Below, one piece after another: positions 7,990-59,849 of a stretch of 64,000 nt of DNA (within the stretch, counting starts at the first letter, position 1; every line of letters begins with the position of its first letter). The DNA is taken from contig JBAZCA010000001.1 of the NCBI GenBank assembly GCA_041671125.1, forward strand, positions 136,120 to 200,119, in the 5' to 3' direction. This DNA is from Patescibacteria group bacterium. Its GTDB lineage: Bacteria > Patescibacteriota > Patescibacteriia > Patescibacteriales > JBAZCA01. The notes beneath the pieces were generated by a model, which worked only from the letters and a program-made list of their open reading frames with translations, was not told the origin of the DNA and made no database searches. Made by a program: the position numbers and the translations under genes.

Positions 7990-8015
7990 TTGTTGCGGAT
8001 GCCGGCGCCTCAGGG

Positions 8016-8315
8016 CTAATGGCCGCAACAGCAACAGCAACCCTCTTTTTTATCCCGGTGAGCCTCGGCCTCTTTTTCCATTTTTTCCAGCCGTTCATAG
8101 TAATCCGGGAATTCTTTCATGTGCGCCAAGGCAATTTTTCCGGTCATGATTTCGTCGTCATCGGTAACGTTGGTTTCGGAATCAATTGAGCCGTGTTCAA
8201 GCTCAACGTCCATGCCAAAACGGAATTGCTCCAAATCAAATTTACCAAAATCAACCCCGATCTTCTCACCCACTCTTTTAGCGTCTTCCAAGGTAAAATA
8301 TTTCTTCTCGCTCAT
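8016..8315 (-). CDS. Small DUF5661-like protein with C-terminal penta-cysteine tail
   Basis: GMDVELEHG...ALAHMKEFPDYYERLEKME resembles the DUF5661 motif (assigned from memory, not searched). It ends ...KKEGCCCCCGH. Confidence 0.55.
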   Translation of the reverse strand: MSEKKYFTLEDAKRVGEKIGVDFGKFDLEQFRFGMDVELEHGSIDSETNVTDDDEIMTGKIALAHMKEFPDYYERLEKMEKEAEAHRDKKEGCCCCCGH

Positions 8316-8331
8316 ATCGTAAAGTTAGTAA

Positions 8332-9438: not shown

Positions 9439-9532
9439 AACCGGGAAGGCGGTAAATGGGGTTATGTCCCATGAAACGCAAAACGCGGGGATGAATTTTT
9501 TTCCTGCAAATCGTCAATCGTAAATCTCAATG

Positions 9533-9603
9533 TCGGGGCATTGGGAATTGAACCCAAGCTACAAGACCCCCAGCCTTGCGTACTACCACTATACTATGCC
9601 CCG
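9533..9603 (-). tRNA. tRNA-Pro (GGG)
   Basis: Acceptor cggggca/tgccccg, T-arm ttggg-ttcaatt-cccaa, anticodon loop ctGGGgg with G37. Confidence 0.85.
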
Positions 9604-9695
9604 CCTAACAAACAACATATTATCACGATTTTTCTAAAAGTAAAGACGCGAAAAGAGTATTTTTTCCGCCGTAAAACAGCTACCCGGGTTCTAGT

Positions 9696-10379
9696 TCATT
9701 GCGCGCCGAGCTTTTCCCGCTCCAAATACCCGATCACTTCTTCAAAATTTTCCGCCGTGAAATCCGCCTTGTCTATCACGCTTTTCCGCCCCGCATTTTC
9801 GGTAAAAACGATGAATTTATCGGCCGCGCCGGATTCTTTCATTTCGTAATCAGTCCAGCCGTCGCCGATAGCGTATATCCCGCCTTTAAGGCCGAGCGCT
9901 TTAAGCTGTTTTATTTTTCCTCCGGTCTGGGAAAGAAAATTAGACTGGTCGTAGCCGGTGATATTCCCCTCCTTGTCAAAAATAAATGTATTAGCCCGGC
10001 AATTTTCCGGCCTGAGTCCGAGTTCGCGGGCGACGGGCATAACATAATCGTTAAAGCCGCCGGAGAAAACAAAAATATTTTCGGCGCGTTCTTTTAAATA
10101 TCCGCGGTTGCGCCAAAAAGATTCGGTAATATGGCCGCGAAGTATTGTAATGAATTCATCCAGTTCTTTTTTCCCAGCTTTCAGTATTGCCATGCGGCGT
10201 TTAAGCGATTCTCCGAAGTTTAACTTCCCTTCCATGCCGAGATTGGTGATTTCCGAAAACTCTCGCATAATTTTTTCCCGCTCCGGATTATTTTTCAGGG
10301 TCAGAAAAAATAACTCATCCAGACATTCAATCTGAACCAGGGTGCTGTCAAAATCAATAATGAGATATTTGTTCGGCAT
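9696..10379 (-). CDS. serB: Phosphoserine phosphatase (HAD superfamily)
   Basis: DFDSTL (DxDxT) nucleophile motif and a GDGWTD motif. It is the last gene of a serA-serC-serB arrangement. Confidence 0.75.
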   Translation of the reverse strand: MPNKYLIIDFDSTLVQIECLDELFFLTLKNNPEREKIMREFSEITNLGMEGKLNFGESLKRRMAILKAGKKELDEFITILRGHITESFWRNRGYLKERAENIFVFSGGFNDYVMPVARELGLRPENCRANTFIFDKEGNITGYDQSNFLSQTGGKIKQLKALGLKGGIYAIGDGWTDYEMKESGAADKFIVFTENAGRKSVIDKADFTAENFEEVIGYLEREKLGAQ

Positions 10380-10402: not shown

Positions 10403-11491
10403 CTACTGCCCGGCGATTTCATCAATCGCCTGCGTTAGTATTTTAAAATCTTCCAGAGTATGGGTCGGAAAATTCGCGAGACGAAAATGGGTTTCTTTCA
10501 TGTCTTTATAGCCTTTACCCGGAAAAATCCCTTTGGCGTTCAATTGCTTATGAAATTCTTCGCCCGTTACGCCATTCGGCAGTTTAATGCATAAAACCGA
10601 AAGCGCCCGGTATTTATCCTCTTTGGCATGGACTTCCATGCCGTTATTTTTCGCCCAGCCGTAAATGTAGTCAGCCTTTTCCCGGGTTTCTTTTTCAATC
10701 CGCTCCATGCCTTTATTTTTAAACCGCCCGGCCTGTTTCGCGAGAAGATAAATCCCTAAGACGTTCGGGGTTTCAAAAGTCTGGTCTTTCGCGCCGTACT
10801 GTTCAAGGTTAGCGATTGAGTGGACAACACCGACGTCCTTTCCCTCCTCCGCCATTTTCAGGGCTTTGGCTTTAGCCCGGTCATTAACGATTAACACCCC
10901 GAGCCCGGCCGGAAGTCCAAAACCTTTTTGCACGGAAAAAAACCAGGCGTCAGCCAGCGAAAAATTAATTTTATGGGCTCCGGCGGCGGATACGATATCT
11001 ATGGCGATCAACATCTCCGGATGTTTTTTTCTGAAAGCCTCCAGCTCATCCTCAACCAAACTAACGCCGGTAGGAGTTTCAGTATAAGTTAGGGCCGCCA
11101 GTTCAAAACCGTTGCCGTTTATTTCCTCGTTGGCGTAATTAAAACCCATGCCCGATTCCACCTCTTTCACAACCGCTTCTTTGCCGATTTTTTTTAAGGT
11201 GCTGGCGAAGCGCTTGGAAAACGAGCCAAAAACATAATGGCAGCTTTTATTTAGAACAAGATTGCGGCCGGTAATTTCCATGCATTCGCTAGCCGAAGAA
11301 ACAAAGTAAATCGTATAACCGTCCGGAATTTCTAAAAACGCTTTTAAATTTTCCCTGGCCGCCTGGAAAATCGCTAAAAAATCCTTATGGCGGTGCGAAA
11401 GCGACAAAAGGTTTTTGTCCAAAGCCTCGCGAACGTCATTTTTTACGTCTTCCGAAACGGCCGACGGACCGACATTGAAATTTAAGTACAT
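10403..11491 (-). CDS. serC: Phosphoserine aminotransferase
   Basis: NFNVGPSAVS and SHRHKDF match the SerC N-terminal motifs. Class-V aminotransferase fold. Sits between serA and serB. Confidence 0.75.
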   Translation of the reverse strand: MYLNFNVGPSAVSEDVKNDVREALDKNLLSLSHRHKDFLAIFQAARENLKAFLEIPDGYTIYFVSSASECMEITGRNLVLNKSCHYVFGSFSKRFASTLKKIGKEAVVKEVESGMGFNYANEEINGNGFELAALTYTETPTGVSLVEDELEAFRKKHPEMLIAIDIVSAAGAHKINFSLADAWFFSVQKGFGLPAGLGVLIVNDRAKAKALKMAEEGKDVGVVHSIANLEQYGAKDQTFETPNVLGIYLLAKQAGRFKNKGMERIEKETREKADYIYGWAKNNGMEVHAKEDKYRALSVLCIKLPNGVTGEEFHKQLNAKGIFPGKGYKDMKETHFRLANFPTHTLEDFKILTQAIDEIAGQ

Positions 11492-11528
11492 AACGGTTTA
11501 TGCTATTAGTAAATGATTTCTATAAAGA

Positions 11529-11715
11529 GATGCGAGCATTGAAAAATTTTGGAAAAATCATGAGCGTGGAAAGCGTGTAAAATTCCACTGTTTGAGCGAA
11601 CCCGCCGAATCGGCGGGGAGCGAGTTTGGAATTTTACTAGCTTTCATAGCGAATGATCCAAAATTTTTCCTGCTCGCGATTTTTGCGCCACTTTTTCTAA
11701 AAAAGTGGCAAAAAT
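11529..11715 (+). repeat. Family B structured element (about 185 bp), copy 1
   Basis: gatgcgagcattgaaaaatttt...cccgccgaatcggcgggg...aaaatttttcctgctcgc...gccactttttctaaaaaagtggc. Nested inverted repeats plus a 3' hairpin. Lies between serC and serA. Confidence 0.8.
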
Positions 11716-11736
11716 ATTTAAATACAAAATACATTA

Positions 11737-12678
11737 TCACATATTCACACTCCCAGCTTTTCTGCCTTCGGCCATAAACCGGCAGACTTTCTCGCTCGTT
11801 GACAGCGCGATATCAACCTGAGCTTCTTCGGTTGAAGCGCCGATATGCGGGGTTAAAATTACGTTCGGAAGACCCTGTAATTCACATTCCATTTTTTCAT
11901 CGTTAGTTTTCGGCTCATTAGCGTAAACGTCAATTGCCGCTCCGGCTAAATGCCCGGATTTTAAAGCTGAGGCCAAAGCGCTCATATCAACAACGTTTCC
12001 CCGGCTTAAATTAATTAAATAACTTCCCGGTTTCATTAAAGCGATTTTTTCCGCGTTTATTAAATTCGGGGCCGAGGCATGGAGCGATACAACGTCCGCC
12101 TCTGCTAAAAGCTCTTCCAGGGTTTTCATCTTTTTCGCCCTGCCCATTGCCAACTTATCAAAAACGTCAAAAAATATAACTTTCATGCCGAGCGCTTCGG
12201 CTAAAACCGAAAGTTGGGAGCCAATATTGCCATAACCTACTATGCCCAAAGTTTTTCCCCGGACTTCATAAGAACCTTTGGCGCTTTTTTTCCAGTCTCC
12301 GGCGTGCATCTCCCGGTTCCGGTCGCCGATTTTACGGAGCAAACTAATAATAAAACCAATAGCCAGTTCGGCCACGCTTCTCGTAGAAGAAAAAGGCGCG
12401 TTAAAAACGCAGACTCCGGCCGAAGTACAGGCGGCGAGATCCACCTTATTCAAGCCGATAACATATCCGCCGATGACTTTGAGGTTTTTTGCGGCCGCGA
12501 GAACTTCCGCGTCAATTTCAGTCTTAGAGCGGATGCCGAGCACTTCCACGTCTTTGATTTTTTCTTTAAGTTCATCTTTTGGCAGAGTGCCTTTAATTAA
12601 CTCTACCTGAAAATCGCGCTCTTCATAATACTTTTTCGCGAGCTCGCTTATACCCTCTAAAAGCAATACTTTTGGCAT
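11737..12678 (-). CDS. serA: D-3-phosphoglycerate dehydrogenase (short form, no ACT domain)
   Basis: 2-hydroxyacid dehydrogenase with GIVGYGNIGSQ NAD motif. Context is with serC and serB. Confidence 0.85.
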   Translation of the reverse strand: MPKVLLLEGISELAKKYYEERDFQVELIKGTLPKDELKEKIKDVEVLGIRSKTEIDAEVLAAAKNLKVIGGYVIGLNKVDLAACTSAGVCVFNAPFSSTRSVAELAIGFIISLLRKIGDRNREMHAGDWKKSAKGSYEVRGKTLGIVGYGNIGSQLSVLAEALGMKVIFFDVFDKLAMGRAKKMKTLEELLAEADVVSLHASAPNLINAEKIALMKPGSYLINLSRGNVVDMSALASALKSGHLAGAAIDVYANEPKTNDEKMECELQGLPNVILTPHIGASTEEAQVDIALSTSEKVCRFMAEGRKAGSVNM

Positions 12679-12722
12679 AAATTTTATGTTCGCTAATTAA
12701 TAAATGTTAAGTTTAAATTACG

Positions 12723-13054
12723 TTGTCATCTCAACCTTAGCGCAACAGAGAGTCATATTTCTTCTGTCATCCTGAGCGTAGCGAAGGATCTGCGGATGCG
12801 TTTCATATATTCACTTTTTATAACGCGCCACCGATTCTTTCTCATACTCTTCAACCTCTTTTTTATTTATCCCGTAATCCTTAAATAACCCCTCGCTTAA
12901 ATCCAGTAAATTTAAAAATGACTGCGGCAAACGACAACCATCTTTATTTAAACCCTTAGATACTTATTTACGTTCGCAGATCCTTCGTCCCGAATATTCG
13001 GGACTCAGGATGACAAAATAAAAAAGGATTTCTCTCTCGCGCTTAGAATGACAG
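12723..13054. repeat. Family C palindromic repeats (tgtcatcctgagcg...ggatgaca), composite copy
   Basis: Left arm tgtcatcctgagcgtagcgaaggatctgcg (12765-12794). Right arm cgcagatccttcg...actcaggatgaca (12974-13014). About 180 bp lies between the arms, with additional half-sites at both ends. Confidence 0.75.
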
Positions 13055-13171
13055 AAAAAGAGGATAATAAAAGACAGCCAAATTTGGAAACCGGGAGCGT
13101 TTCCATTGGTCAGAGGTAGTACAATTCACTCTGCCAATACTAGTAAGGAAACACTCCCGGAACGACGAGGA

Positions 13172-13285
13172 CTAGTCGTCTGGACATTCGTCCTCGTCAT
13201 CAGGGGGATCGTCAATAATATCCCCCTCATACTCATAACGACCCTCTTCCAGAGAGTCGCCTCTGTCATCTAGCCCGTAGCCCAT
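13172..13285 (-). CDS. Candidate 37-aa highly acidic small protein
   Basis: Own translation: MGYGLDDRGDSLEEGRYEYEGDIIDDPPDDEDECPDD. Preceded by GGAGAGGAGGTG and 7 nt, then ATG. Too short for the ORF track. Confidence 0.35.
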   Translation of the reverse strand: MGYGLDDRGDSLEEGRYEYEGDIIDDPPDDEDECPDD

Positions 13286-13422
13286 AATATCACCTCCTCT
13301 CCGCCGGAGCTACACGGCAAAAAATAAAACGAACACGAAACCAGGAACTAAACCATGATTCATATTTACTTCCCGCTTTCCTATCCACTGAACCTTTTTA
13401 AAGAACAAAATTATTAAAAATG

Positions 13423-13607
13423 GATGCGAGCATTGAAAAATTTCGGGCGTATCACGAGCGTAGAAAGTGTGCAAAATTCCACTGTTTGAGGACCCGCCGA
13501 ATCGGCGGGGACGAGTTTGGAATTTTGCTAGCTTTCATAGTGAGTGATCCGAAATTTTTCAATGCTCGCGATTTTTGCGCCACTTTTTCTAAAAAAGTGG
13601 CAAAAAT
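13423..13607 (+). repeat. Family B structured element, copy 2
   Basis: Near-identical by eye to 40121-40304. The listed ORF 13420..13713 is a translation of this repeat. Confidence 0.8.
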
Positions 13608-13630
13608 TTTAACGCAACCTTATACATCTT

Positions 13631-14524
13631 TCAACCAAATAGCGTCGTACTTAAATATTTTTCCCCTCTATCCGGAAAGATCGTTACTATGTTTCCTTTA
13701 TCAATCTTTTTAGCGATTTTTAAGGCCGCGAGCAGGGCGGCGCCGGACGACATGCCGACAAAAATTCCCTCTTCGCTAATAATCCGCCGGGACATGGCAA
13801 AGGCTTCTTCGGTGTCAATCATAATAACGTCATCCAGTTTTTCGCGATTATAAATTTCTGGGATAATCGCTTCTTCCATGTTTTTTAAACCCTGAATATA
13901 ATGGCCGCGCACCGGTTCAGCCGAGACTATTTTCACCGCCGGATTTTTCTTTTTTAAATACGCTCCGATGCCCATGAGCGTTCCCGAAGTGCCAAGGGCG
14001 GCGGTAAAATAATCAACCTTGCCATTAAGGTCGCGCCAGATTTCCCGGGCGGTAGTTTCGTAATGGGCGATCTTATTATACTCATTGGAAAACTGGTTCG
14101 GGTTAAAATACTTTTCCGGATTTTCCGCTAATAGCTCCCGGACTTTCATTATAGCCCCGTCCGTGCCTTTTGTCTTCTCCGTCAAAGTAACTTTGGCGCC
14201 AAAGGCCTTAATCATTTTAATCCGTTCAGGCGAGACCGCCGCGCTCATCACTATTTCCACGCCGTAGCCGCGCGCCGCGCCGATCATGGCGAGGGCGATT
14301 CCGGTATTGCCGGACGTCGCTTCAATAATGGTTTTACCTTTGGTTAATTTTCCCTCCTTTACGCCCTGCTCCACCATTTTCAGGGCAATCCGGTCTTTTA
14401 TGCTTCCACCCGGATTAACGCCTTCAATTTTCGCGTAAATATTCACGCCCTTTTTCGTATTCAGCTTGTTGATCTTTACCATCGGCGTCCGGCCGATTGT
14501 TTCCAGTATATTATTATAAATCAT
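13631..14524 (-). CDS. cysK: Cysteine synthase (O-acetylserine sulfhydrylase)
   Basis: IGRTPMVKINKL...NPGGSIKDRIA carries the PLP-lysine motif, plus the SGNTG loop. Confidence 0.85.
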   Translation of the reverse strand: MIYNNILETIGRTPMVKINKLNTKKGVNIYAKIEGVNPGGSIKDRIALKMVEQGVKEGKLTKGKTIIEATSGNTGIALAMIGAARGYGVEIVMSAAVSPERIKMIKAFGAKVTLTEKTKGTDGAIMKVRELLAENPEKYFNPNQFSNEYNKIAHYETTAREIWRDLNGKVDYFTAALGTSGTLMGIGAYLKKKNPAVKIVSAEPVRGHYIQGLKNMEEAIIPEIYNREKLDDVIMIDTEEAFAMSRRIISEEGIFVGMSSGAALLAALKIAKKIDKGNIVTIFPDRGEKYLSTTLFG

Positions 14525-14535
14525 ATAAATAAAAT

Positions 14536-14557
14536 CCGTCCCTTTTGAGGACGGTTT
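14536..14557 (-). terminator. Attenuator terminator 11 nt upstream of cysK ATG
   Basis: Minus strand reads CCGUCCU-CAAAA-GGGACGG followed by AUUUUAUUUAU, then ATG. Its 5' half AAACCGUCCUC can instead pair with GAGGAUGGUUU (14621-14631). Confidence 0.65.
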
Positions 14558-14789: not shown

Positions 14790-15410
14790 TTAAATAAGTG
14801 ATCCGAGTAAATCATCAACCGTATAACTCTTATCCATCTGCTCGTAATAATCAATCGTCGTATCCGCCAGTTTTTCGTAAAGCCCGGTCCGATAAGCTAA
14901 AAGCGCCGGATAGCATCTTTTTAGAGCCGCGACCTCTTTCTCGCCGGCCAAAGGCTTATACGCTTCACCCCAGATTATCGGCTTCGGGTTGTCAAAATAC
15001 TGTTTAATTTTTTTCTCAATTACTTCTTTCGGCGTATTAAAATAAACTACTTTGGTCAGTTTTTTCATTCTTAGGAGTAGTTCGCCGGACAGGTAAATAA
15101 CGCTCCCGGTCGTGTCAATAACAATATTTTCGCTTATTCCATTTTCCGCGGCATCCAGCGCTTCTTTTAGGTTTTTAGCTTCAAGTTCCAGATATTTCCC
15201 GCTGTTTTCCGGGCATCTCTCGTCATAAGGCTGTCCGAGCCAGCGGCTCATGTCTTTAATTCCCGAATATCCGAGTTCTTCCAGTTCCGGGCCGAGCGCT
15301 TTCTCAATCATGTCGTCAATGCCAAACCTTTTAAAGCCTTTTTCTTTTTTAAGCTTCTCCGACCAGTAAGATTTCCCTACTCCGGCCATGCCGATTAAAG
15401 AGATAAACAT
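14790..15410 (-). CDS. P-loop kinase, shikimate-kinase-like fold; function uncertain
   Basis: Walker A GMAGVGKS. DTTGSVIY aligns with the STGGGVI of shikimate kinases. It lies immediately downstream of thrC, and a separate aroK exists at 28534. Confidence 0.55.
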   Translation of the reverse strand: MFISLIGMAGVGKSYWSEKLKKEKGFKRFGIDDMIEKALGPELEELGYSGIKDMSRWLGQPYDERCPENSGKYLELEAKNLKEALDAAENGISENIVIDTTGSVIYLSGELLLRMKKLTKVVYFNTPKEVIEKKIKQYFDNPKPIIWGEAYKPLAGEKEVAALKRCYPALLAYRTGLYEKLADTTIDYYEQMDKSYTVDDLLGSLI

Positions 15411-15422
15411 AATTTTATGTAA

Positions 15423-16781
15423 TTACAAATTCCCAAGCGCTTTTTTCAACTCCTCATAATTATTTTTAATACTGATTTTCCGCTTCTCTTTCTGCTTTAG
15501 CTTTTTTATTTCTTCCGAATCATCAACGTAAATCCCGGTGTTTTCCTTAATCACGTCAGCGAACTTTAAAGGCGAGGCTGTGGAAAAAACAACTTTAGTA
15601 AGTCCGTTCTCGCCTTCCTTTTCCGCTCCGGCGAACGCCACGGCCGTGTGGGGATCAAGGAGATAATTATATTTTTCATAAACTTTTTTTATGGTTTCGG
15701 CCGTTTCCTTGTCATCCACTCTTTCCGCTTTTATCACTTTGCGGAATTCATCCGGGTTATCATGGAAAACTTTTTGGATGCGGATGAAGTTGCTCGGGTT
15801 GCCGATGTCCATGGCGTTAGAAAGGGTCGCCACCGTCGCCCGCGGCTTAAACTCTCCGGTTTCGTAATATTTTTTCGCCGCGTCATTGGCGTTGGTAACC
15901 GCTAAAAACCGGCTAAAAGGAAATCCCATTTCCCGGGCAAAAACTCCGGCGCAAAGGTTGCCGTAGTTGCCGCAAGGCACGACAAATTCCACCCCCTCTT
16001 GGTCTCCCCCTTTTAAAGGGGGAGATATTTTTTGTCCCGCCCGTTTCCTCCCTCTTTCTAAGGGGGAGGTTAGGAGGGGGTAGAGTTGCGAATAAACATA
16101 AGCGTAATAAACCATCTGCGGCAATAGCCGGCCGACGCTTATGGAATTAGCGGCCGTAAGGTTTAACGCGGCTAAATCCGGGTCATTAAACGCCTGCTTG
16201 GCGAACGCCTGGCAATCGTCAAAAACGCCTTCAACTTCAATAGTCGCAACATTCGGCTCCACCCTGGTCAACTGCTCTTCCTGCAGTTTGGAAACCATGC
16301 CCTTAGGATAAAGGATTACTACTTTCACGTTCGGAACCCCGCCAAGGCCGTGCGCCACGGCGCCGCCGGTATCACCGGAAGTGGCAACGAGAATCGTCGC
16401 GGTTTTTTTCTCTTTTTCAAGGATCCGGCTCATGAACCGCGCGAGAACCCGCGCCGCCACGTCTTTAAACGCGAGCGTCGGGCCATGAAACAATTCAAGA
16501 ACATAATAATCCCCGATCTTTATTAAAGGCAGGGGAAAATTTAAAGCCTCTTCCATCATCACCCGAAGTTCTCCCTCGCTAAAATCGTCGCCTACCCATT
16601 TTAAAAGCGTTTGCGTTGCGACCTCAGTCAAATCCTTTCCTTTTAAATTTTCCAGTTCTTCTTCGGAAAATTTCGGAAAAAATTCGGGAAAATAAAGCCC
16701 GCCGTCCGGCGCGAGGCTCTTTAACATGGCTTCTTTAAAATTAACGGCCGGTGATTTACCGTTTAAGCTAAAAAATTTCAT
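15423..16781 (-). CDS. thrC: Threonine synthase (long type) carrying an in-frame family D repeat insertion
   Basis: The N-terminus GGLYFPEFFP, HGPTLAFKD (PLP lysine) and SGDTGGA are ThrC motifs. The segment LLTSPLERGRKRAGQKISPPLKGGDQEG is encoded by the repeat at 15989-16084. Confidence 0.9.
   Translation of the reverse strand: MKFFSLNGKSPAVNFKEAMLKSLAPDGGLYFPEFFPKFSEEELENLKGKDLTEVATQTLLKWVGDDFSEGELRVMMEEALNFPLPLIKIGDYYVLELFHGPTLAFKDVAARVLARFMSRILEKEKKTATILVATSGDTGGAVAHGLGGVPNVKVVILYPKGMVSKLQEEQLTRVEPNVATIEVEGVFDDCQAFAKQAFNDPDLAALNLTAANSISVGRLLPQMVYYAYVYSQLYPLLTSPLERGRKRAGQKISPPLKGGDQEGVEFVVPCGNYGNLCAGVFAREMGFPFSRFLAVTNANDAAKKYYETGEFKPRATVATLSNAMDIGNPSNFIRIQKVFHDNPDEFRKVIKAERVDDKETAETIKKVYEKYNYLLDPHTAVAFAGAEKEGENGLTKVVFSTASPLKFADVIKENTGIYVDDSEEIKKLKQKEKRKISIKNNYEELKKALGNL
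15989..16084. repeat. Family D palindromic element inside the thrC coding sequence
   Basis: ccaccccctcttggtctcccccttttaaaggggga...tcctccctctttctaagggggaggttaggagggggtag. The reading frame is maintained. Confidence 0.8.
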
Positions 16782-16822
16782 TATTTTTAAGATGCGGTTT
16801 TAGACTGTAGAATAATCATTTT

Positions 16823-16923
16823 TGTCATCTCGACGACCGAAGGGAGGAGAGATCTAATTGCTATGAATGCTTTTTCACGGAGATTAGATTTCTCGCCCTC
16901 CTTGCGTCGGGCTCGAAATGACA
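16823..16923. repeat. Family C palindromic repeat
   Basis: tgtcatctcgacgaccgaagggaggagagatctaa...ttagatttctcgccctccttgcgtcgggctcgaaatgaca. Confidence 0.75.
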
Positions 16924-16974
16924 AAAGAGGGGTTTTTGTTGCGTTCTTCTATAGTCTAAATTTAGATAAAAAAA

Positions 16975-17391
16975 TTAACAGCTTCTTTCATCCTTCTTCA
17001 GCTTGTAATTAAAACTCTCAACAAGCGCTATCCAGCTCGCTTCTATAATATTCAATGACACGCCGATAGTCCCCCAGCGATCTTTGCCGTCGCTTGATTC
17101 AATAAAGACCCGGACTTTGGCCGCGGTCCCGTCTTTGGACGGCAGTACCCGGACTTTGTAATCAGTGAGCTTCATTTTTTTCAGCCGCGGATAGACTTTT
17201 TCAAGGGATTTCCTAAGCGCGTTGTTTAGAGCGTCAACCGGCCCGACGCCAGACGCCGTATTCCGCTCTTTATTAGCGCCAACTTTAATCCCGACTTCAG
17301 CTTCGGCCGCCGGCTCCCCCCAGTCCCTTTCTTTCTGGACTATTACCCGATAGTCCATAAGTTCAAAGAATTTTTTCTCTTTGTGAGGCAT
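16975..17391 (-). CDS. Stand-alone LeuA-type allosteric (LeuA_dimer-like) domain protein
   Basis: SGVGPVDALNNALRKSL...AAKVRVFIESSDGKDRWGTIGVSLNIIEASWIALVESF. It shares the GVGPxDA motif and following strands with the LeuA C-terminus (52332..) and the C-terminus of the 46074..47936 product. Confidence 0.65.
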   Translation of the reverse strand: MPHKEKKFFELMDYRVIVQKERDWGEPAAEAEVGIKVGANKERNTASGVGPVDALNNALRKSLEKVYPRLKKMKLTDYKVRVLPSKDGTAAKVRVFIESSDGKDRWGTIGVSLNIIEASWIALVESFNYKLKKDERSC

Positions 17392-17605
17392 ATTGTTTAG
17401 AGTTATTGAGACGGTGGCAAAACTAATTTTACAACCATCTCAATTATCCCCTTATAATATCAATCTAGCACATACTCCTAAAAATTCAATCCTCAGCTAC
17501 TTATAAATGATTTTTTCGGCATGCTTCGTCATAAAAACGGGATTCATGGAATGAAGCCTGATTTTTGGGAGAGGAGAAAAGACATTTTCTTCCGTCTTTC
17601 CTCCC

Positions 17606-17785
17606 CTAACGAAGCCCCAAATCTCTTTTGCATAGCTTACAAAACGGGGGCCTCATCTGCGGGATCAGGTCGTGGCAATCTTTAAAGATTACCACCTTAA
17701 CCTCTCTCCCGCAGCCTTTTTTCCTGCAAGTAAAAACAGCTGTTTCTCTCTCCCTTGCAGGTTGGAGAGATTTTTTTTGATCCAT
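17606..17785 (-). CDS. Small zinc-ribbon-like protein (59 aa)
   Basis: MDQKKSLQ...FTCRKKGCGREV...PPFCKLCKRD has CxxxC...CxxC. Preceded by CCGGAAAGGAGG and 6 nt, then ATG. Confidence 0.4.
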   Translation of the reverse strand: MDQKKSLQPARERETAVFTCRKKGCGREVKVVIFKDCHDLIPQMRPPFCKLCKRDLGLR

Positions 17786-17926
17786 CAGGAGCCTCCTTTC
17801 CGGCGTCTCATTAACGCCAATTTTTTTATTCCTCCTCAACCCTTAACTCATTTTCCGGTCAGTTTCCGGATAAGGTAAAAGTTGAGGAGAAGAGCGAAGT
17901 CCTCCGTGTTTCGCTCTTCTCTTTTT

Positions 17927-18130
17927 TCACATTCCGCGCGGGATTGGTCCCGGTTGGGATACGATTTGATGACGTTCCTGCTCGAGGCAATACATCGAGC
18001 AGGCCATCTGTCCCAGTAAAGGGGCGAGGTCAAATATCTTAATTCCTCGCCCCTTCACCGGGAACAGTCCCCGGCATACTCTGCAGGGGCAGACAATAAT
18101 CCTGCCCCTGAAAAGTTCAAAACCCTTCAT
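17927..18130 (-). CDS. Small Cys-rich protein (67 aa)
   Basis: MKGFELFRGRIIVCPCRVCRG...ACSMYCLEQ. Preceded by CCAAGGAGGG and 4 nt, then ATG. A hairpin follows at 17885-17925. Confidence 0.4.
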   Translation of the reverse strand: MKGFELFRGRIIVCPCRVCRGLFPVKGRGIKIFDLAPLLGQMACSMYCLEQERHQIVSQPGPIPRGM

Positions 18131-18361
18131 AGTCCCTCCTTGGCGGCGCAAGAACTGCCGCCTCTTTAAAATGAAAAACAATAAATCGCCTCTACAACTC
18201 CAGCCTCTAACAAAAACATCCACGTTATAAATATCAGCGTTCTTTCCGCGTATTTATCCGCGTCAAATCCACATTATAAATAAAGGCCAAAGTAATATCT
18301 GCGATTGTTTTAAAAGAACGGCTATACTTAAATTTTTATGTTTCAGCTAATCAAAAGCATT

Positions 18362-18481
18362 TGTCATTCCCGCGGAGGCGGGAATCCAGGGTAAAAAGGA
18401 ACATCCGGCTAATTACCTTAATATTGTAATCAGCGGTATTACGTTTAACTCCTGGATTCCGGCTCGGAGGCCGGAATGACA
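18362..18481. repeat. Family C palindromic repeat (cattcc/ggaatg variant)
   Basis: tgtcattcccgcggaggcgggaatccaggg...cctggattccggctcggaggccggaatgaca. Confidence 0.75.
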
Positions 18482-18485
18482 TAAA

Positions 18486-18517
18486 GATAAAAAAATACCG
18501 CCCCAATTGCGGGCGGC
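18486..18517 (-). terminator. Attenuator terminator of the Thr/Ile/Met leader
   Basis: Minus strand reads CCGCCC-GCAAUUG-GGGCGG followed by UAUUUUUUUAU. Its 5' half lies within a 12 nt sequence that is perfectly complementary to 18575-18586. Confidence 0.65.
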
Positions 18518-18596
18518 TGGCTGATTATTCTTTGACTTTCTTACTTCTAACTTCTTACTTCTAACTTATTTTCGCCGCCCGCAATTAAAACCCCGG

Positions 18597-18656
18597 TCAT
18601 AATAATTCCGGTCATCATCATAATGGTCTTAATTGTGGTGGCGTTTATTCTCGTCA
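18597..18656 (-). CDS. Candidate leader peptide, Thr/Ile/Met-rich (19 aa)
   Basis: MTRINATTIKTIMMMTGII, verified codon by codon. Similar in style to E. coli ThrL ([21 protein letters not shown]). The ATG lies 6-7 nt after the -10 box. Confidence 0.6.
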
Positions 18657-18662
18657 TGTTTA

Positions 18663-18692
18663 TATTTAATCAAACACCAACGAAACTGTCAA
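18663..18692 (-). promoter_or_regulatory. Sigma70-like promoter of the Thr/Ile/Met leader
   Basis: Minus strand reads TTGACA (18687-18692), 18 nt spacer, TAAATA (18663-18668), 6 nt, ATG. Alternatively a 17 nt spacer, TTAAAT and 7 nt. Confidence 0.55.
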
Positions 18693-18721
18693 TAACATGC
18701 ACCTGACACGGCATCCAAAAT

Positions 18722-18794
18722 AAAAAAAAAGCCCTCCGCGCGAAGATTAAGGGATTTGTGGTTCTGCGAAATACACAGAACGCGCGCGAAGGGC
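18722..18794 (-). terminator. Long-stem terminator ending the GC-rich locus
   Basis: Minus strand GCCCUUCGCGCG ... CGCGCGGAGGGC forms a 12 bp stem enclosing a smaller hairpin, followed by U9. Confidence 0.6.
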
Positions 18795-18799
18795 CTGGT

Positions 18800-19060
18800 T
18801 TACCGGCGGTCAGGACACAAGGGTGCCCTTTCTTTCGTCGCCGGAGGGGGGGCGGTGAGGGGCGAGTTGCCCCTCAAAGTAGCCAACTCTTGTGGAGACC
18901 CTAACCAGGCCTCCATGCTAACACGAAAATCCGCTCCCACCGGCGGTTCCCCAACCGCCGAAATAATCCCGCGGTGCCTAAGGCATTCCGGTCTCTGGCA
19001 CCCGGGCCCGCATGTCAACGTCTCCTCCCCGGGGGTGGGCGGAGTCTTTTGTTCGGACAT
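18800..19060 (-). other. GC-rich locus: either an 86-aa ORF or a structured RNA (unresolved)
   Basis: GGCGGAAAGGAGG, 6 nt, then ATG, opening an ORF MSEQKTPPTPGEETLTCGPGCQRPECL... The region also contains many GC helices: ggcctggtt/aaccaggcc, gaggggc/gcccctc, cggcggtt/aaccgccg and ggtgcc/ggcacc. Confidence 0.35.
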
Positions 19061-19190
19061 TTCTGTCCTCCTTTCCGCCCGGCGATGCCGGGCTGCTGTT
19101 AATAACGATCAACACCTCTCTGATTTTCATTGTCTTTCGTGTTTAAATCAAAAACAGAAAGCTATTGACGATTTATTATTTTTTAATGAA

Positions 19191-19410
19191 CTTAGGACTT
19201 ACGCGTTTGGAAAATAAACTCATTTTGTCATTCCGGTCGGAGCGTAGCGGAGAGCCGGAATCCAGCCTGCCTGCCGGCAGGCAGGGATTTAAAGGTAATA
19301 ATGTGTATATTTTTAAGATGCAGTTAGAGCTTTTAACCCTGGATTCCGGATAGCCTTACGGCTTCCGGAATGACAAAAGGGGTATTTGCGCGCAAACGCG
19401 TAAGTCCTAG
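19191..19410. repeat. Nested composite palindrome (outer acgcgtaagtcc arms around a family C core)
   Basis: cttaggacttacgcg...tgtcattccgg...cctgcctgccggcaggcagg...ccggaatgaca...cgcgtaagtcctag. Confidence 0.75.
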
Positions 19411-19635
19411 AACTAATATCCCGCAAATAAGTAAATTCTCTTTATTCGCGTCATTAGCGCGCATTCGCGTATTAGCATTACGAAATATTTGTAAATTTGT
19501 AACAGATTTGCCTGCCTGCCGGCGAGGCAGGTTGATTTGTGGGTATAAAGAAAATCTTCCCGCGCGGAAATGGGAAGACGAGATGGAAAAGTGCAGGCAC
19601 AATCCATTCACGCGCGGGTTTTTGCCTTGCCAGGG

Positions 19636-19884
19636 CTACTTTTTAGCTTTTTCCTCCTTAATAATTCCGAGCTCTAAATGGCGAAGCCGGTACATCTCAT
19701 TTACCGGATTCGCTTTCTGCTCCCGGGCAGCCTTCGCCCGGTCGCAATCCCTCTCCGAGTGCGCCCTCTTGAAGCGACGCACATACTCTTCTTTTTCGGC
19801 CTTACTCAGCATATTACCGAATCGGCCGATTTCCAGCCCGCAACGCCGACAACAGACTGGAACAAAAAAACTTATTGAAACCAT
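19636..19884 (-). CDS. Small basic Cys-containing protein (82 aa)
   Basis: MVSISFFVPVCCRRCGLEIGRFGNMLSKAEKEEY... Preceded by CCAGAAGGAGGA and 4 nt, then ATG. Confidence 0.4.
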   Translation of the reverse strand: MVSISFFVPVCCRRCGLEIGRFGNMLSKAEKEEYVRRFKRAHSERDCDRAKAAREQKANPVNEMYRLRHLELGIIKEEKAKK

Positions 19885-20133
19885 CACTTCCTCCTTCTGG
19901 CGCCCCTCTCTTAATGTAGGGTCGCCTGTCAAATATTAAAACACGTCCTCTGCCAACTTTCTGCTTTCCATCCATAACTATCTATACCCTTATTAGATCC
20001 TTCAGCCTAATCGGCCTCAGGATGACAAAAAACAAAATAAAAAACAAAAGGCTGGCGAGGACTTGGCTTAATTTATAAAGAGCAAAATCTAATATTTGTA
20101 AATTTGTAACGGATTTGTTGATTCGTAGGTTAT

Positions 20134-20162
20134 AAAAAACCGTCCCCTTTTTCTTGAGACGG
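20134..20162 (-). terminator. Rho-independent terminator downstream of tyrA
   Basis: Minus strand reads CCGUCUC-AAGAAAAAG-GGGACGG followed by UUUUUU. Confidence 0.65.
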
Positions 20163-20185
20163 CTTTTGTTGTAATCTTGGATTAT

Positions 20186-20215
20186 ATTATAAACAAAAAC
20201 TCTAACTTTTGTCAA
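20186..20215 (-). promoter_or_regulatory. Consensus promoter located between the tyrA stop and its terminator
   Basis: Minus strand reads TTGACA (20210-20215), 18 nt spacer, TATAAT (20186-20191). Confidence 0.45.
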
Positions 20216-20241
20216 TAGCGCTATGTTTTAGGAAAAATTGA

Positions 20242-24446: not shown

Positions 24447-25835
24447 ATGATAAAAAACGGAAAGATCATCGTTAATAAATTCGGCGGCGGGATCATGATT
24501 GAAAAACATATCCCCTTTACCGATGAAAGGTTAAGAGAGCAGATTAAAGCCGGCTTCCGACCGGTGGTTGTCGTTTCGGCTTTAAAAGGCGTTACTGACC
24601 GGATCATCCATTTTCTCGCCGGACTAAAACATGAAGTCTGCCGCAACCAGCAGATTGGCGGCAACACCGAAAAATTTTCCATCCGCCTGGTAAGCCCTTT
24701 TGTCGCCGAGTTAAAGGAAGACCATCTAAAGCTCCTTGAGCAAGTCGGAGTATTAAGGGAGGAACGGAAAAAAGCGATGGCTGACATGGATAAAATTTTT
24801 TTCGGGCTGGAAAACGATTTAAACGCCCTCCTCCGTTTTGGATTCTTAAATGTTTTTGATGATAAGATCTCGGCCTACGGCGAAAAGCTAGCCGGGGTTT
24901 TTTTTACCGCCTACCTTAATTCCAAAGGCTTTACCGCCCGGACAATAATGGCTGAAGACATTCCGATAATGACCGATGACTCTTTCCGCGACGCCAATAT
25001 TGATTACAAAGTTTCGGAAAAAAACGCGAGAAAAAAAATCCTGAAATCCGCCGGCATCCCGGTTATCCCGGGCTTTACCGGAAAAACCGCCAACGGCAAC
25101 GTGACTACCCTTGGCCGCGGAGGAACTGATACAACCGCTTGCTTTTTAGGAGCCGCTCTCAGGGCCGACAAAATAATTTTATGGAAAGACGTGGACGGAG
25201 TATTGTCGGCCGACCCAAAAATCGTCCCTTCCGCGAAAACCGTCCCTTTTATAAGCTACGCCGAAGCCGAAGAATCCGGCAAAATAATCCACGACAAAGC
25301 CATCCAGTACGTAAAAATGTTTAAGACTCCGGCCGAAGTGGCGGCCATTTCCGATCCGGCGAAAAAAACCTTAGTCGGCCCGTCCAAAGATAAAAAAGAG
25401 GGTCCGAAGATTGTCAGCTTTAAAAAAGATCTCTCGCTTCTAATCATCACCGACGAAAAAATGAACCAACGCGGCTATCTCGCCCATGTTACCGGGCTAT
25501 TGGCCTCCCGCAAAGTAAACCTGGACACTATAAGAAATACCCGTGATAAACTGCATATTGTCGCTGAAAGCTATAACGGCCCGATTGAAGAGGCGGTTCG
25601 CGACCTAAAGGAAGAAGTGGCAAAATTAAAAATCATTCCGGTAAACATGGTTGTTTTGATTGGTAGCCTGAGCTGGGAGATGGTCAGCCGATTTAACGAT
25701 GTTCTTATAAAGCTCTGCCCCGACGCGGAACTGGGCGCTTTTCCTTACCGGAATTGCGTCCGGCTGGAAGCCGTAGTCCGAGCCGAAGACACGGAAAAAA
25801 TGATCCGGGCTTTGCATGAAGAATTTATTAAATAG
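24447..25835 (+). CDS. Aspartate kinase
   Basis: IVNKFGGG, VVVVSALKGVTD and LGRGGTDTTA amino-acid-kinase motifs, plus a C-terminal ACT-like region. Confidence 0.85.
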   Translation: MIKNGKIIVNKFGGGIMIEKHIPFTDERLREQIKAGFRPVVVVSALKGVTDRIIHFLAGLKHEVCRNQQIGGNTEKFSIRLVSPFVAELKEDHLKLLEQVGVLREERKKAMADMDKIFFGLENDLNALLRFGFLNVFDDKISAYGEKLAGVFFTAYLNSKGFTARTIMAEDIPIMTDDSFRDANIDYKVSEKNARKKILKSAGIPVIPGFTGKTANGNVTTLGRGGTDTTACFLGAALRADKIILWKDVDGVLSADPKIVPSAKTVPFISYAEAEESGKIIHDKAIQYVKMFKTPAEVAAISDPAKKTLVGPSKDKKEGPKIVSFKKDLSLLIITDEKMNQRGYLAHVTGLLASRKVNLDTIRNTRDKLHIVAESYNGPIEEAVRDLKEEVAKLKIIPVNMVVLIGSLSWEMVSRFNDVLIKLCPDAELGAFPYRNCVRLEAVVRAEDTEKMIRALHEEFIK

Positions 25836-25926: not shown

Positions 25927-27015
25927 ATGAAAAAATTTAGAGTCGGCATCCTCGGCGCGACCGGCATGGTTGGCCAAAACTACATAAGATTGCTTAATAA
26001 CCACCCCTGGTTCAAAGTTACCTACGTCGCGGCTTCGGCCAATTCGGCCGGAGTAACGTATTTTGATTCCATAATCGGCCGCTGGCAGATGGCCACCGCC
26101 GTCCCCAAAGACACAAAGTCTTTAATCGTTGAAAATGTCGCCAACATCAATAAAGCCAGGAAGCATTGTGATTTTGTTTTTTCGGCCTTTGAAATGCCGG
26201 ACAAAAACCTGGTTAAAGAAATGGAGGAAAAATACGCCGCCGCCGGAATCCCGGTCGTCTCAAACGCCTCGGCCAACCGGTTTACCGATGACGTGCCCAT
26301 GCTTATCCCGGAAATAAATCCGCACCATATTGACATCATTCCGATCCAGAAAAAAAAACGTGGCTGGAAAAAAGGTTTTATCGTCGTCAAACCCAATTGC
26401 AGTCTTCAAAGTTATATCACCCCGATTTTTTCCCTTACTAAAGCGGGCTATCCGGTTGAAAAAATATTTATCACCACCCTTCAGGCCGTATCCGGCGCCG
26501 GTTATCCGGGCGTGCCAAGCCTGGATATGATTGGCAATGTCGTGCCATTTATCCCGGGCGAAGAAGAAAAAACCGAGGAAGAACCTTTAAAAATCCTCGG
26601 GGAAATAAAGGACGGAAAATTCCAAAAGGCGGTTTATCCGACAATTTCCGCCCATTGCAACCGGGTGCCGGTGATTGACGGCCATCTCGCCTGCGTCAGC
26701 CTGAAATTCGCCGGGAAAAAACCCAGCCGGGAAAAAATCCTGAAAATCTGGAAAGAATTCAGGGCTCTTCCCCAAACCTTAAAACTGCCGATGGCGCCGG
26801 AACAGCCGATCCTTTACCGTAACGAGCATAACCGCCCCCAGCCGAGAAAAGACCGGGATCGGGAAAAAGGCATGGCCGTTACCGTCGGACGCTTAAGGGA
26901 ATGCAAAATCTTTGACTATAAATTCGCGGCTTTAAGCCATAACACGGTGCGCGGCGCGGCCGGCGGCGGAATATTAAACGCCGAATTGCTTGTGAAGAAA
27001 GGATATATAAAATAA
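25927..27015 (+). CDS. asd: Aspartate-semialdehyde dehydrogenase
   Basis: VGILGATGMVGQ, KPNCS (active-site Cys) and SAHCNRVPV motifs. Confidence 0.9.
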   Translation: MKKFRVGILGATGMVGQNYIRLLNNHPWFKVTYVAASANSAGVTYFDSIIGRWQMATAVPKDTKSLIVENVANINKARKHCDFVFSAFEMPDKNLVKEMEEKYAAAGIPVVSNASANRFTDDVPMLIPEINPHHIDIIPIQKKKRGWKKGFIVVKPNCSLQSYITPIFSLTKAGYPVEKIFITTLQAVSGAGYPGVPSLDMIGNVVPFIPGEEEKTEEEPLKILGEIKDGKFQKAVYPTISAHCNRVPVIDGHLACVSLKFAGKKPSREKILKIWKEFRALPQTLKLPMAPEQPILYRNEHNRPQPRKDRDREKGMAVTVGRLRECKIFDYKFAALSHNTVRGAAGGGILNAELLVKKGYIK

Positions 27016-28430: not shown

Positions 28431-28520
28431 GCGAAGTGGAACGTAGTGAAGGATCTCGTTAAAAACAGTAAGCGTCGCGAAGACGGGATTCTTCCCCCGC
28501 AAATGCGGGGTCAGAATGAC
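28421..28520. repeat. Family C palindromic repeat overlapping the aroA stop
   Basis: gtcatcctgagcgaagtggaacgtagtgaaggatctcg...gggattcttcccccgcaaatgcggggtcagaatgac. Confidence 0.8.
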
Positions 28521-28533
28521 GAAAAGAGAATAT

Positions 28534-29856
28534 ATGAATATAATCCTTATCGGTTTCATGGGTTCGGGAAAAACTACGCTAGCCAAAATACTCACAGACG
28601 CTTTGGGCTGGAAGGCAATTGAAATGGATGATTTGATTTTAAAAAAAAGCGGTCGAAGGACCATTGGTGAAATTTTTGAAAAAAACGGCGAATCGGTCTT
28701 TCGAAAATTGGAAGCGCAAATCGCCAGAGAATTATCCAATACTAATAATAAAATCATCTCTACCGGCGGGGGCGTTATCATGAACGCTAAAAATATCGCT
28801 AACCTGAAAAAAACCGGAAAAATTGTTTATTTAAAAGACAGCTTTGAAAATATCCGGGAAAGATTAAAAAAAGATAAAACCCGGCCGCTCTTTCAGGATT
28901 TAAAGAAAGCAAGAAAACTGTTTAAGCTTCGCCAGTCCTTATACGAGAAATACGCCGATGAAATTATTAATTGCGCGGCTAACCCGGACTTAAACCGCGT
29001 CAGCCGGGAAATTACTAAACGGCTGGAAAAAGACTTAAAAAAAATCTGCCTGATTATCGGCGATCCCGTAGCCCACAGCCTCTCGCCCGCCATGCATAAC
29101 GCCGGCTATCGGGCTTTAAAAATTGATAACCAATTTATTTTTCTTTCAGCCAAAGTTAAGCCGCGGGAATTAAAAAACAGCGTCCGGGCGGCGAGAACTT
29201 TAGGAATCCGCGGACTTACCTCTACCATGCCGCACAAACAAGCGATAATGAAATACCTTGACCGGATTGACCCAATCGCGAAAAAAATCGGCGCGGTTAA
29301 TACGGTGGTTAATGAGAGCGGCCGACTGACCGGCTATAATACTGACTGGCTGGGCGCCGTAATCCCTTTGGAAAATTCTGCCGGTAAAAATGGCTTAAAA
29401 AATAAAAGAGTGGCTCTACTCGGTTCGGGCGGCGCGGCCCGGGCGATTGCCTACGGGTTAGCGAAAAAAGGCGCCCGCTTAAAAATCTTTGACCGCGACA
29501 TTAATAACGCGCGAAAACTGGCTAAGGAATTCGGGGCAGAATCCGGCGGTTATTCGCAAATCCATGAAGTTAAAAGCTCTGACATCATTATCAACGCCAC
29601 GCCGATCGGCATGAAACCGCGTGAAAATGAATCACTGGTACCAGCGGAATTTTTACGTAAAGACCAGGTTGTTTTTGACGCCGTCTATTTTCCCCGAAAA
29701 ACCAAACTTTTAAAACAGGCGGAAAAAAAAGGCGCGAAAATTATTCCCGGCTTGGAAATGCTTTTATATCAGGGAGCGGCCCAGTTTGAATTATATACCG
29801 GCAGAAAAGCGCCGGTTGAAGCAATGAGAAAAGCCTTGAAAAGATGCGAGCATTGA
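28534..29856 (+). CDS. aroK-aroE: Shikimate kinase / shikimate 5-dehydrogenase fusion
   Basis: N-terminus has GFMGSGKTT and STGGGVI (shikimate kinase). C-terminus has GDPVAHSLSPAMHN, MPHK, NTDW and GSGGAARA (shikimate dehydrogenase). Start placed at MNIILIGF. The stop lies in family B repeat copy 3. Confidence 0.85.
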   Translation: MNIILIGFMGSGKTTLAKILTDALGWKAIEMDDLILKKSGRRTIGEIFEKNGESVFRKLEAQIARELSNTNNKIISTGGGVIMNAKNIANLKKTGKIVYLKDSFENIRERLKKDKTRPLFQDLKKARKLFKLRQSLYEKYADEIINCAANPDLNRVSREITKRLEKDLKKICLIIGDPVAHSLSPAMHNAGYRALKIDNQFIFLSAKVKPRELKNSVRAARTLGIRGLTSTMPHKQAIMKYLDRIDPIAKKIGAVNTVVNESGRLTGYNTDWLGAVIPLENSAGKNGLKNKRVALLGSGGAARAIAYGLAKKGARLKIFDRDINNARKLAKEFGAESGGYSQIHEVKSSDIIINATPIGMKPRENESLVPAEFLRKDQVVFDAVYFPRKTKLLKQAEKKGAKIIPGLEMLLYQGAAQFELYTGRKAPVEAMRKALKRCEH

Positions 29857-50446: not shown

Positions 50447-50448
50447 TG

Positions 50449-59779: not shown

Positions 59780-59849
59780 ACATTTTTTACCACTTATAAA
59801 CATTCCTAAATCGGCAGTTTTTACCAAAGAGAATTAATCAATTTTTATT

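Follow-up and report, generated by a model that had tools for sequence, protein, structure and literature searches.

The stretch of DNA analyzed here (the window) comprises 64,000 nucleotides (nt) of contig JBAZCA010000001.1 of a Patescibacteria group bacterium. On its minus strand, three open reading frames (ORFs) encode, in this order, a LeuA_dimer domain protein of 138 amino acids (aa), the threonine synthase ThrC and a P-loop kinase of 206 aa, which we refer to as KIN and predict to be a homoserine kinase. An earlier inspection of the letters of this DNA (the sequence-only reading) had listed the three ORFs in this order, and we found all of them where it had placed them (Table 1). The 452-aa product of the middle gene is a threonine synthase, as it matched TIGR00260 with 262.1 bits (cut-off, 167.1), PF14821 with 71 bits and PF00291 with 87 bits, and it is 80% identical to a 427-aa ortholog in the related genome L086. 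This gene ends 12 nt upstream of KIN and is separated from the LeuA_dimer ORF by 193 nt, while a cysK/cysM-type gene follows KIN after 265 nt. The spacer between KIN and this cysteine synthase gene, which probably forms a separate unit, harbors one promoter-like and one terminator-like site, neither kind of site occurring above chance. Since promoter- and terminator-like matches around the operon were no more frequent than in shuffled sequence, the term operon rests here on gene spacing and on conserved synteny.

KIN begins with MFISLIGMAGVGKSYW and contains the motif VIDTTGSVIYL. Its matches in Pfam were below threshold (AAA_33, 24.9 bits; shikimate kinase PF01202, 20.3 bits compared to a cut-off of 22.1), and the NCBIfam shikimate kinase models NF010553, NF003456 and NF002988 gave only 24.3, 19.1 and 17.2 bits (cut-offs, 204, 195 and 161, respectively). 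The best NCBIfam match was NF040667, named "homoserine kinase," with 49.6 bits compared to a cut-off of 197. A protein search recovered 212 relatives, mostly of 200 to 220 aa, which either had no name or were called "shikimate kinase," "AAA family ATPase" or "hypothetical protein." Scanning one genome per species, we detected KIN loci in 302 species genomes, and among 1.84 billion cluster representatives, a profile search identified 434 clusters at E values of ≤1e-30 and 686 at ≤1e-10. As judged from these sequence comparisons, KIN is a member of a distinct and coherent family of the shikimate-kinase fold that has no name in databases. In the literature, we found no description of this family, and searches for it in Patescibacteria yielded nothing of relevance.

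The AlphaFold 2 (AF2) model of KIN had a predicted local distance difference test (pLDDT) score of 94.9, and its top 29 fold matches in the PDB were all shikimate kinases or derivatives thereof (e.g., 1KAG and 2IYQ). Compared to shikimate kinase structures, template modeling (TM) scores normalized to the target ranged from 0.64 to 0.75, at 16 to 23% identity, and hhalign aligned KIN with the AroK profile with a probability of 98.7%. We used the shikimate kinase of Mycobacterium tuberculosis (MtSK) as the reference for individual residues; in its structures, D34 holds the acceptor hydroxyl, R117 belongs to the lid, R136 and R58 bind the carboxylate, and the GGG loop (G79 to G81) binds shikimate. 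In the alignment, K13 of KIN corresponds to the P-loop lysine, and D32, K143 and R174 fall on D34, R117 and R136, respectively. R58, in contrast, is replaced by L74, and the GGG loop is replaced by T101-G102-S103, which follows the aspartate D99. Furthermore, KIN harbors approximately 35 residues more than shikimate kinase, which enlarge the substrate-binding lobe.

These features extend to the whole family. In an alignment of 90 sequences, G12, K13, W57, P61, E77, D99, T100, G102, S103, P144 and R174 were invariant and D32 was retained in 89. Position 143 was occupied by Lys in 65 sequences and by His in 19, and the position of R58 was occupied by Leu in 79, Ile in 10 and Val in 1. The resulting signature reads GMxGxGKS, DD, W..GxP, Y[LI]..E, DTTGSV, P[KH]P and R...Y. 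Because the catalytic positions are kept and two shikimate-binding elements are lost, the conservation pattern indicates that the phosphoryl-transfer machinery has been retained and the acceptor pocket rebuilt. The new invariant acidic residue of this pocket would fit a zwitterionic amino-acid substrate.

We then turned to the genomic context of KIN in 80 loci fetched out of the 302 species genomes. To label the ORFs, we used the enzymes of the window itself and homoserine dehydrogenases verified by Pfam. Among the "binchicken" assemblies, certain taxon labels (e.g., "Gammaproteobacteria") look unreliable, and the loci concerned were grouped by context and not by name. A thrC gene directly adjoined KIN on the same strand in 32 of the 80 loci, and the homoserine dehydrogenase gene hom and the aspartate-semialdehyde dehydrogenase gene asd were present within 5 kb in 22 and 15 loci, respectively. 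Among the 47 loci of the Patescibacteria/DPANN-like subset, thrC was adjacent in 28 and hom lay within 5 kb in 21. The gene order ask-hom-asd-KIN-thrC, complete or without the aspartate kinase gene ask, was found, for example, in L007, L008, L009, L011, L014, L016, L018, L066 and L074, commonly with a 4-nt overlap between asd and KIN. PF00742 (155 to 168 bits) identified the gene flanked by ask and asd as hom in L007, L008, L009, L011 and L016. Such operons leave homoserine kinase as the only step of the route from aspartate to threonine without a gene, which supports the assignment of this activity to KIN. Moreover, the adjacent thrC genes belonged to two classes, the long Thr_synth_N type and the short PRK08197 type, and were located either upstream or downstream of KIN. 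This indicates that the association was built more than once and is linked to function rather than to one inherited operon.

KIN was also found fused to the enzymes preceding it in the pathway. In three loci labeled as Peribacteria (L021, L024 and L031), a single ORF of approximately 1,045 aa combines an AA_kinase domain, ACT domains, homoserine dehydrogenase and KIN, and thrC is the next gene. The search of cluster representatives added two further aspartate kinase-homoserine dehydrogenase-KIN fusions, P0375 (1,031 aa) and P0386, so that at least five such proteins are known to us. This arrangement is reminiscent of ThrA and the thrABC operon of Escherichia coli, where aspartate kinase, ACT and homoserine dehydrogenase are likewise joined and thrC follows. 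Unlike in ThrA, however, the fusions (L021, L024, L031 and P0375) carry a kinase as a third domain, and this kinase has the shikimate-kinase fold and not that of the GHMP kinases. In two other loci, asd and KIN are followed by a Cys_Met_Meta_PP enzyme (L003, positions 10831 to 14555; L005, positions 10913 to 12055), and L003 additionally harbors a split metE, encoding the cobalamin-independent enzyme. This order hints that O-phosphohomoserine also feeds methionine synthesis there, as it does in plants.

No GHMP kinase was present among the scanned ORFs of the window, in line with the sequence-only reading, which had seen no GHMP-type thrB there. We extended the search with contig ERZ27249449:k141_224736 (87,093 bp), which covered approximately 10 kb past the window end and 8.9 kb before its start, and no GHMP kinase or thrB was found among the called genes of these extensions either. 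GHMP motif II (PxGSGLGSSA) was absent from all frames of the window, of the contig extensions and of the 80 loci within 10 kb of KIN. Similarly, neither KIN nor any other scanned ORF of the window matched TIGR02535 or the metalloenzyme domain resembling phosphoglycerate mutase (PGM).

Taken together, these data make it very likely, as far as sequences and predicted structures can tell, that KIN is an L-homoserine kinase that uses ATP, has the shikimate-kinase (nucleoside monophosphate [NMP] kinase) fold and replaces the GHMP-type ThrB. From fold, homology, residue conservation, neighborhoods and fusions, we infer both its substrate and the roles of its individual residues. The P-loop (G7 to S14) with K13 would bind ATP, D32 would stand in for the shikimate-kinase Asp on the acceptor hydroxyl, and K143 and R174 would substitute for the lid Arg and for the carboxylate-binding Arg, respectively. 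The second carboxylate-binding Arg would have given way to Leu, and the invariant D99-T-T-G-S103 motif would take the place of the shikimate loop in a pocket enlarged by residues ~44 to 70, which include the invariant W57 and P61. The alpha-amino group of homoserine would be bound by D99 and/or E77. The O-phosphohomoserine produced would serve the threonine synthase encoded 12 nt upstream and, in related genomes, possibly also pyridoxal 5'-phosphate (PLP) enzymes of the Cys/Met type. The sequence-only reading had proposed a non-orthologous homoserine kinase, and this part gains strong support from the adjacency to thrC, hom and asd, from the triple fusions and from the replacement of the shikimate site.

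It had also called conceivable the reverse of what happened in archaea, which recruited a GHMP kinase as their shikimate kinase. The recruitment of a shikimate-kinase relative for homoserine phosphorylation is not new, however, since it was already demonstrated in 2018. DvMF_0971 of Desulfovibrio vulgaris Miyazaki F, formerly annotated as a shikimate kinase, is needed for threonine prototrophy and rescues an E. coli thrB mutant (PMC5764234), and a curated model of its family exists in NCBIfam, namely, NF040667 (hom_kin_desulfo). In both systems, a P-loop kinase related to shikimate kinase takes the place of GHMP ThrB, a function that is proven for the Desulfovibrio type and predicted for KIN, and in both the host has kept a separate true shikimate kinase, which is encoded in the window by the aroK-aroE fusion. 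NF040667 was also the best NCBIfam match for 10 of 10 distant members of the KIN family, although at only 22 to 58 bits. However, the two kinases differ. DvMF_0971 and shikimate kinase II of E. coli share 27% identity (PMC5764234), whereas the KIN family is much further from shikimate kinase, with 17 to 24 bits on the respective models. The family also scores far below the cut-off of NF040667 and, at ~206 aa with the enlarged substrate lobe, exceeds the 163 positions of this model. A homoserine kinase of shikimate-kinase ancestry is thus a known principle, and the novelty lies in a separate, divergent family that current annotation has overlooked.

Several observations weigh against a role of KIN as homoserine kinase. 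We did not find hom in the window or in the fetched stretches of the 87-kb contig beyond it, nor was it found within 10 kb in the relative L086. Outside Patescibacteria (in Desulfobacterota, Chloroflexi, Bdellovibrionales and others), KIN lacked thr neighbors in 29 of 33 loci, and clustering of the neighbors in these loci gave no cluster common to more than 4 loci and none that was metabolic. In addition, the true AroK domain of the genome scored 108 bits on NF040667, which is above the score of KIN, and the match to this model is thus a sign of relatedness and not of membership or substrate. Finally, one of the 80 loci has an aro gene adjacent to KIN (L015, with the order asd-KIN-aroD), which would also fit an aromatic role. 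Together with the fold, the detectable homology to AroK and the many family members named shikimate kinase by JGI, this locus could be taken to mean that KIN is a second, divergent shikimate kinase, similar to an AroL isozyme, and that its adjacency to thrC is incidental. We consider this highly improbable. As the sequence-only reading had stated, the aro operon already contains a canonical aroK fused to aroE, with both parts matching their models, which leaves KIN free for another substrate. KIN does share with AroK and AroL the NMP-kinase fold, the P-loop, the acceptor Asp, the basic lid residue and the C-terminal Arg. However, it scores below every curated cut-off of the shikimate kinase models, it is longer by the ~35 residues of the lobe, and none of the 90 aligned family members has kept R58 or the GGG loop. 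Its context is that of threonine and not of aromatic synthesis, with links to thrC, hom and asd and fusions to aspartate kinase-homoserine dehydrogenase, compared to a link to aro genes in L015 only.

The position of KIN in the window, between thrC and cysK and with serA, serC and serB just beyond, raises another possibility, namely, that KIN phosphorylates a different hydroxylated metabolite of the aspartate or serine family. This could be L-threonine or L-serine, the latter yielding O-phosphoserine for the adjacent CysK-type enzyme, and it is the substrate of KIN that we deduce indirectly. Nevertheless, the neighbors conserved throughout the family are thrC, hom, asd and ask, and a CysK gene was found near KIN in only one other locus (L007). 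Phosphoserine is moreover made directly by the SerA-SerC-SerB route encoded in the window, and in the ask-hom-asd-KIN-thrC operons it is homoserine kinase that is the single missing step. We therefore regard a substrate other than homoserine from this group as improbable.

A homoserine kinase role for KIN would bear on a recurrent problem of pathway annotation, as homoserine kinase is among the steps that most often appear as "missing" when amino-acid synthesis is reconstructed automatically. The GapMind paper and a reconstruction of the gut microbiome name GHMP ThrB and the PGM-like TIGR02535/ThrB2 as the known or predicted forms, and both mention genomes left with no candidate (PMC7311316, PMC9026213). 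The GapMind test set contained 148 prototrophs; ThrB was of low confidence in 29 of these, of which 14 lacked a PGM-like candidate as well (PMC7311316). KIN would catalyze the same predicted reaction as GHMP ThrB and ThrB2 and, like them, is encoded between hom/asd and thrC, but the folds are unrelated and KIN has neither the GHMP motif nor a match to TIGR02535. The KIN family is a directly testable candidate for part of this gap. If KIN is indeed a homoserine kinase, auxotrophy predictions would change for Patescibacteria, DPANN archaea and several anaerobic lineages.

We next considered the 138-aa protein encoded upstream of thrC. It matched PF08502 (LeuA_dimer) with 86 bits, well above the gathering cut-off of 24.9, and its best NCBIfam match was the C terminus of citramalate synthase (TIGR00977, positions 389 to 522; 159 bits, with a cut-off of 450 set for the full-length protein). 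The AF2 model (pLDDT, 89) found its best PDB match by Foldseek in 3F6G, the isoleucine-bound regulatory domain of a Leptospira citramalate synthase (E = 7e-8; TM scores, 0.71/0.80), and it matched the LeuA regulatory domain as well. The complete regulatory domain of citramalate/2-isopropylmalate synthases (3F6G, 3FIG) is therefore present. Unlike CimA and LeuA, however, the protein has neither the catalytic TIM barrel nor the linker subdomain, and its gene lies upstream of thrC and not in a leu or ilv operon. Compared to the 95%-identical strain L083, the gene shows 30 nt differences, 26 of them at third codon positions, corresponding to 25 synonymous and 4 nonsynonymous codons. The L086 ortholog (137 aa) is 87.5% identical and has the same place upstream of thrC-KIN, and between these two genomes ThrC and KIN are 80% and 75% identical. 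As inferred from this substitution pattern, the ORF is a real gene under purifying selection that encodes a lineage-specific amino-acid-binding domain protein.

The closest relatives of the protein are the C termini of full-length citramalate synthases, and upstream of it lies a 2.85-kb, ORF-poor and fast-evolving stretch (74 to 85% identity with indels compared to L083). Both would fit a functionless leftover of a citramalate synthase gene that has lost its catalytic part by deletion and retains only its 3' end. This is unlikely in view of the excess of synonymous changes and of the concentration of differences at third codon positions. A leftover would also be at odds with the length and identity kept in L086, whose KIN has diverged further, and with a model showing a complete and confidently folded domain. 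Moreover, no trace of an HMGL-like catalytic domain was found upstream: tblastn of positions 17392 to 20241 for the cimA catalytic domain or for hom remnants gave nothing better than E = 0.07.

Alternatively, the protein could be a detachable allosteric subunit, as the sequence-only reading had suggested. By analogy to the ThrC-LeuA_dimer fusion encoded elsewhere in the window, it would form a dimer, bind either threonine or a branched-chain amino acid and modulate one of the two enzymes, ThrC or KIN, in trans. Purifying selection, a conservation higher than that of ThrC or KIN in the comparison with L086, and a fold matching the isoleucine-bound 3F6G are consistent with this proposal. The gene is located directly upstream of thrC-KIN in three related genomes, and the at least 119 ThrC-LeuA_dimer fusions in Patescibacteria favor, by Rosetta-stone logic, a partnership of the two domains. 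On the other hand, no stand-alone LeuA_dimer gene was found next to KIN or thrC in the 80 other KIN loci. The protein shares only 30% identity with the LeuA_dimer domain of the second ThrC and is of the citramalate synthase type and not of the LeuA type, and its ORF is separated from thrC by a spacer with a strong hairpin. We also considered whether stand-alone LeuA_dimer proteins form a wider family, which we rejected, as the homologs in L084, L085 and L089, which lie on long contigs, turned out to be consecutive pieces of split cimA genes; those in L090 and L093 sit at contig ends. A regulatory subunit is hence possible but, in our view, doubtful.

The fusion just mentioned, in which the sequence-only reading had recognized a ThrC and a LeuA-type domain, was matched by the corresponding models in both parts. 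It is encoded by the first gene of the ilvE-ilvD-ilvB-ilvC-ridA operon of the window. Among the 120 best-listed homologs, at least 119 have this architecture (~615 aa), and the named ones belong to Patescibacteria lineages. The fusion heads an ilv operon in all three loci examined, i.e., in the window, in L091 (positions 8001 to 9845) and in L092 (positions 8001 to 9851). This first place is usually the seat of ilvA, and neither ilvA nor a clear cimA was seen in the window. The fusion may represent the step that supplies 2-oxobutyrate or threonine for isoleucine synthesis under branched-chain feedback. We found nothing relevant on such fusions in the literature.

One could go further and speculate that the shikimate-kinase fold was recruited for a second time, and independently, in the KIN family, which would be the main homoserine kinase of Patescibacteria, DPANN archaea and various Desulfobacterota and Chloroflexi that apparently lack ThrB. 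O-phosphohomoserine would then be a hub for threonine (via ThrC), for methionine (via the Cys/Met PLP enzymes of L003 and L005) and for isoleucine (via the ThrC-LeuA_dimer fusion, which would replace IlvA at the head of ilv operons). LeuA-type domains, whether part of a fusion or on their own as in the 138-aa protein, would serve as sensors of branched-chain amino acids. As a whole, we give this scenario only a small chance of being correct.

Besides its genes, the locus contains several repeats. The palindromic element within thrC is an inverted repeat with 40-nt arms that adds approximately 25 residues (YPLLTSPLERGRKR...GGDQEG) absent from the 427-aa L086 ortholog. Its core (CCTCCCCCTT..AGGGGGAGG) recurs at positions 50365 to 50390 and 50407 to 50432, at the leuCD-leuB junction, where one of the two copies overlaps leuCD at its 3' end. 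The repeat resembles a small, palindromic mobile element that is tolerated in a coding sequence. In the spacer between the LeuA_dimer ORF and thrC, we detected a hairpin of ~40 bp with a minimum free energy of -56.3 kcal/mol (z = -6.5). This spacer differs from that of L083 at 4 of 193 positions, compared to 5 to 7% in the flanking genes, and the equivalent spacer of L086 measures 62 nt; the hairpin is probably an inserted palindromic element as well. The stretch from 17392 to 20241 contains many short inverted repeats and neither credible ORFs nor pseudogene remnants over its 2.85 kb, and it evolves much faster than the neighboring genes. An Rfam scan of this stretch and of the operon surroundings gave nothing credible.

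Table 1. Positions of the operon genes, their repeats and related pathway genes in the window
Feature	Position	Strand	Basis
cysK/cysM-type cysteine synthase	13631..14524	-	TIGR01136, 372 bits
KIN, 206-aa P-loop kinase of shikimate-kinase fold, predicted homoserine kinase	14790..15410	-	ORF list
thrC, long-type threonine synthase (Thr_synth_N + PALP + THR4_C), 452 aa	15423..16781	-	TIGR00260, Pfam
In-frame palindromic repeat element within thrC	15985..16087	.	Inverted repeat and alignment gap compared to L086
Spacer from LeuA_dimer ORF to thrC, with long, very stable hairpin	16782..16974	-	Folding
Stand-alone LeuA_dimer protein, 138 aa, complete citramalate/isopropylmalate synthase regulatory domain without catalytic domain	16975..17391	-	PF08502
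Aspartate kinase (ask), inside aro cluster, first step towards homoserine	24447..25835	+	TIGR00657, 224.5 bits (cut-off, 208.7)
Aspartate-semialdehyde dehydrogenase (asd)	25927..27015	+	NF006416, 469 bits
aroK-aroE fusion	28516..29856	+	NF010553, 124.5 bits (residues 7-172); NF001319, 286 bits (residues 175-442)
Short-type threonine synthase fused to LeuA_dimer, 620 aa	46074..47936	-	NF006050, 313.6 bits (residues 10-391); LeuA C terminus (residues 446-619)

The operon is part of an amino-acid biosynthesis supercluster of approximately 45 kb (positions 9696 to 53942), and L086 has the same layout. The supercluster starts with serB, serC and serA, followed by cysK, KIN, thrC and the LeuA_dimer ORF, a tyrA-chorismate mutase fusion and pheA. 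It further contains the genes of ADH synthase and dehydroquinate synthase II, which represent an archaeal-type entry into aromatic synthesis, as well as ask, asd, aroA, aroK-aroE, aroD and aroC. The remaining genes are trpEGDCFBA, ridA, ilvC, ilvB, ilvD, ilvE, the ThrC-LeuA_dimer fusion, a leuCD fusion, leuB and leuA (positions 52332 to 53942). Some Patescibacteria, which are usually seen as biosynthetically poor and largely auxotrophic, thus hold pathways for serine, cysteine, threonine, aromatic and branched-chain amino acids. The leuB ORF (positions 50446 to 52056, plus strand) encodes 536 aa, of which residues 23 to 122 match the DUF559 model NF007294; the isopropylmalate dehydrogenase domain follows this DUF559-like part and matches in two stretches. 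At the other end, a 368-aa protein (positions 8332 to 9438, minus strand) adjoins serB, with a tRNA gene in between, and L086 has a 364-aa ORF at the same position. This protein was considered as a homoserine dehydrogenase and dropped, as it had no Pfam, NCBIfam or PDB match.

Outside the supercluster, a full-length LOOT RNA (RF03000, 79.5 bits) lies on the minus strand between ComEC-like genes (positions 62870 to 62997), near a large serine recombinase gene (positions 58148 to 59827). Just past the window end, a SMODS nucleotidyltransferase and an S_4TM effector form a CBASS-like defense pair (L081, positions 8240 to 10000), which adjoins a protein of more than 2,975 aa with Laminin_G domains.

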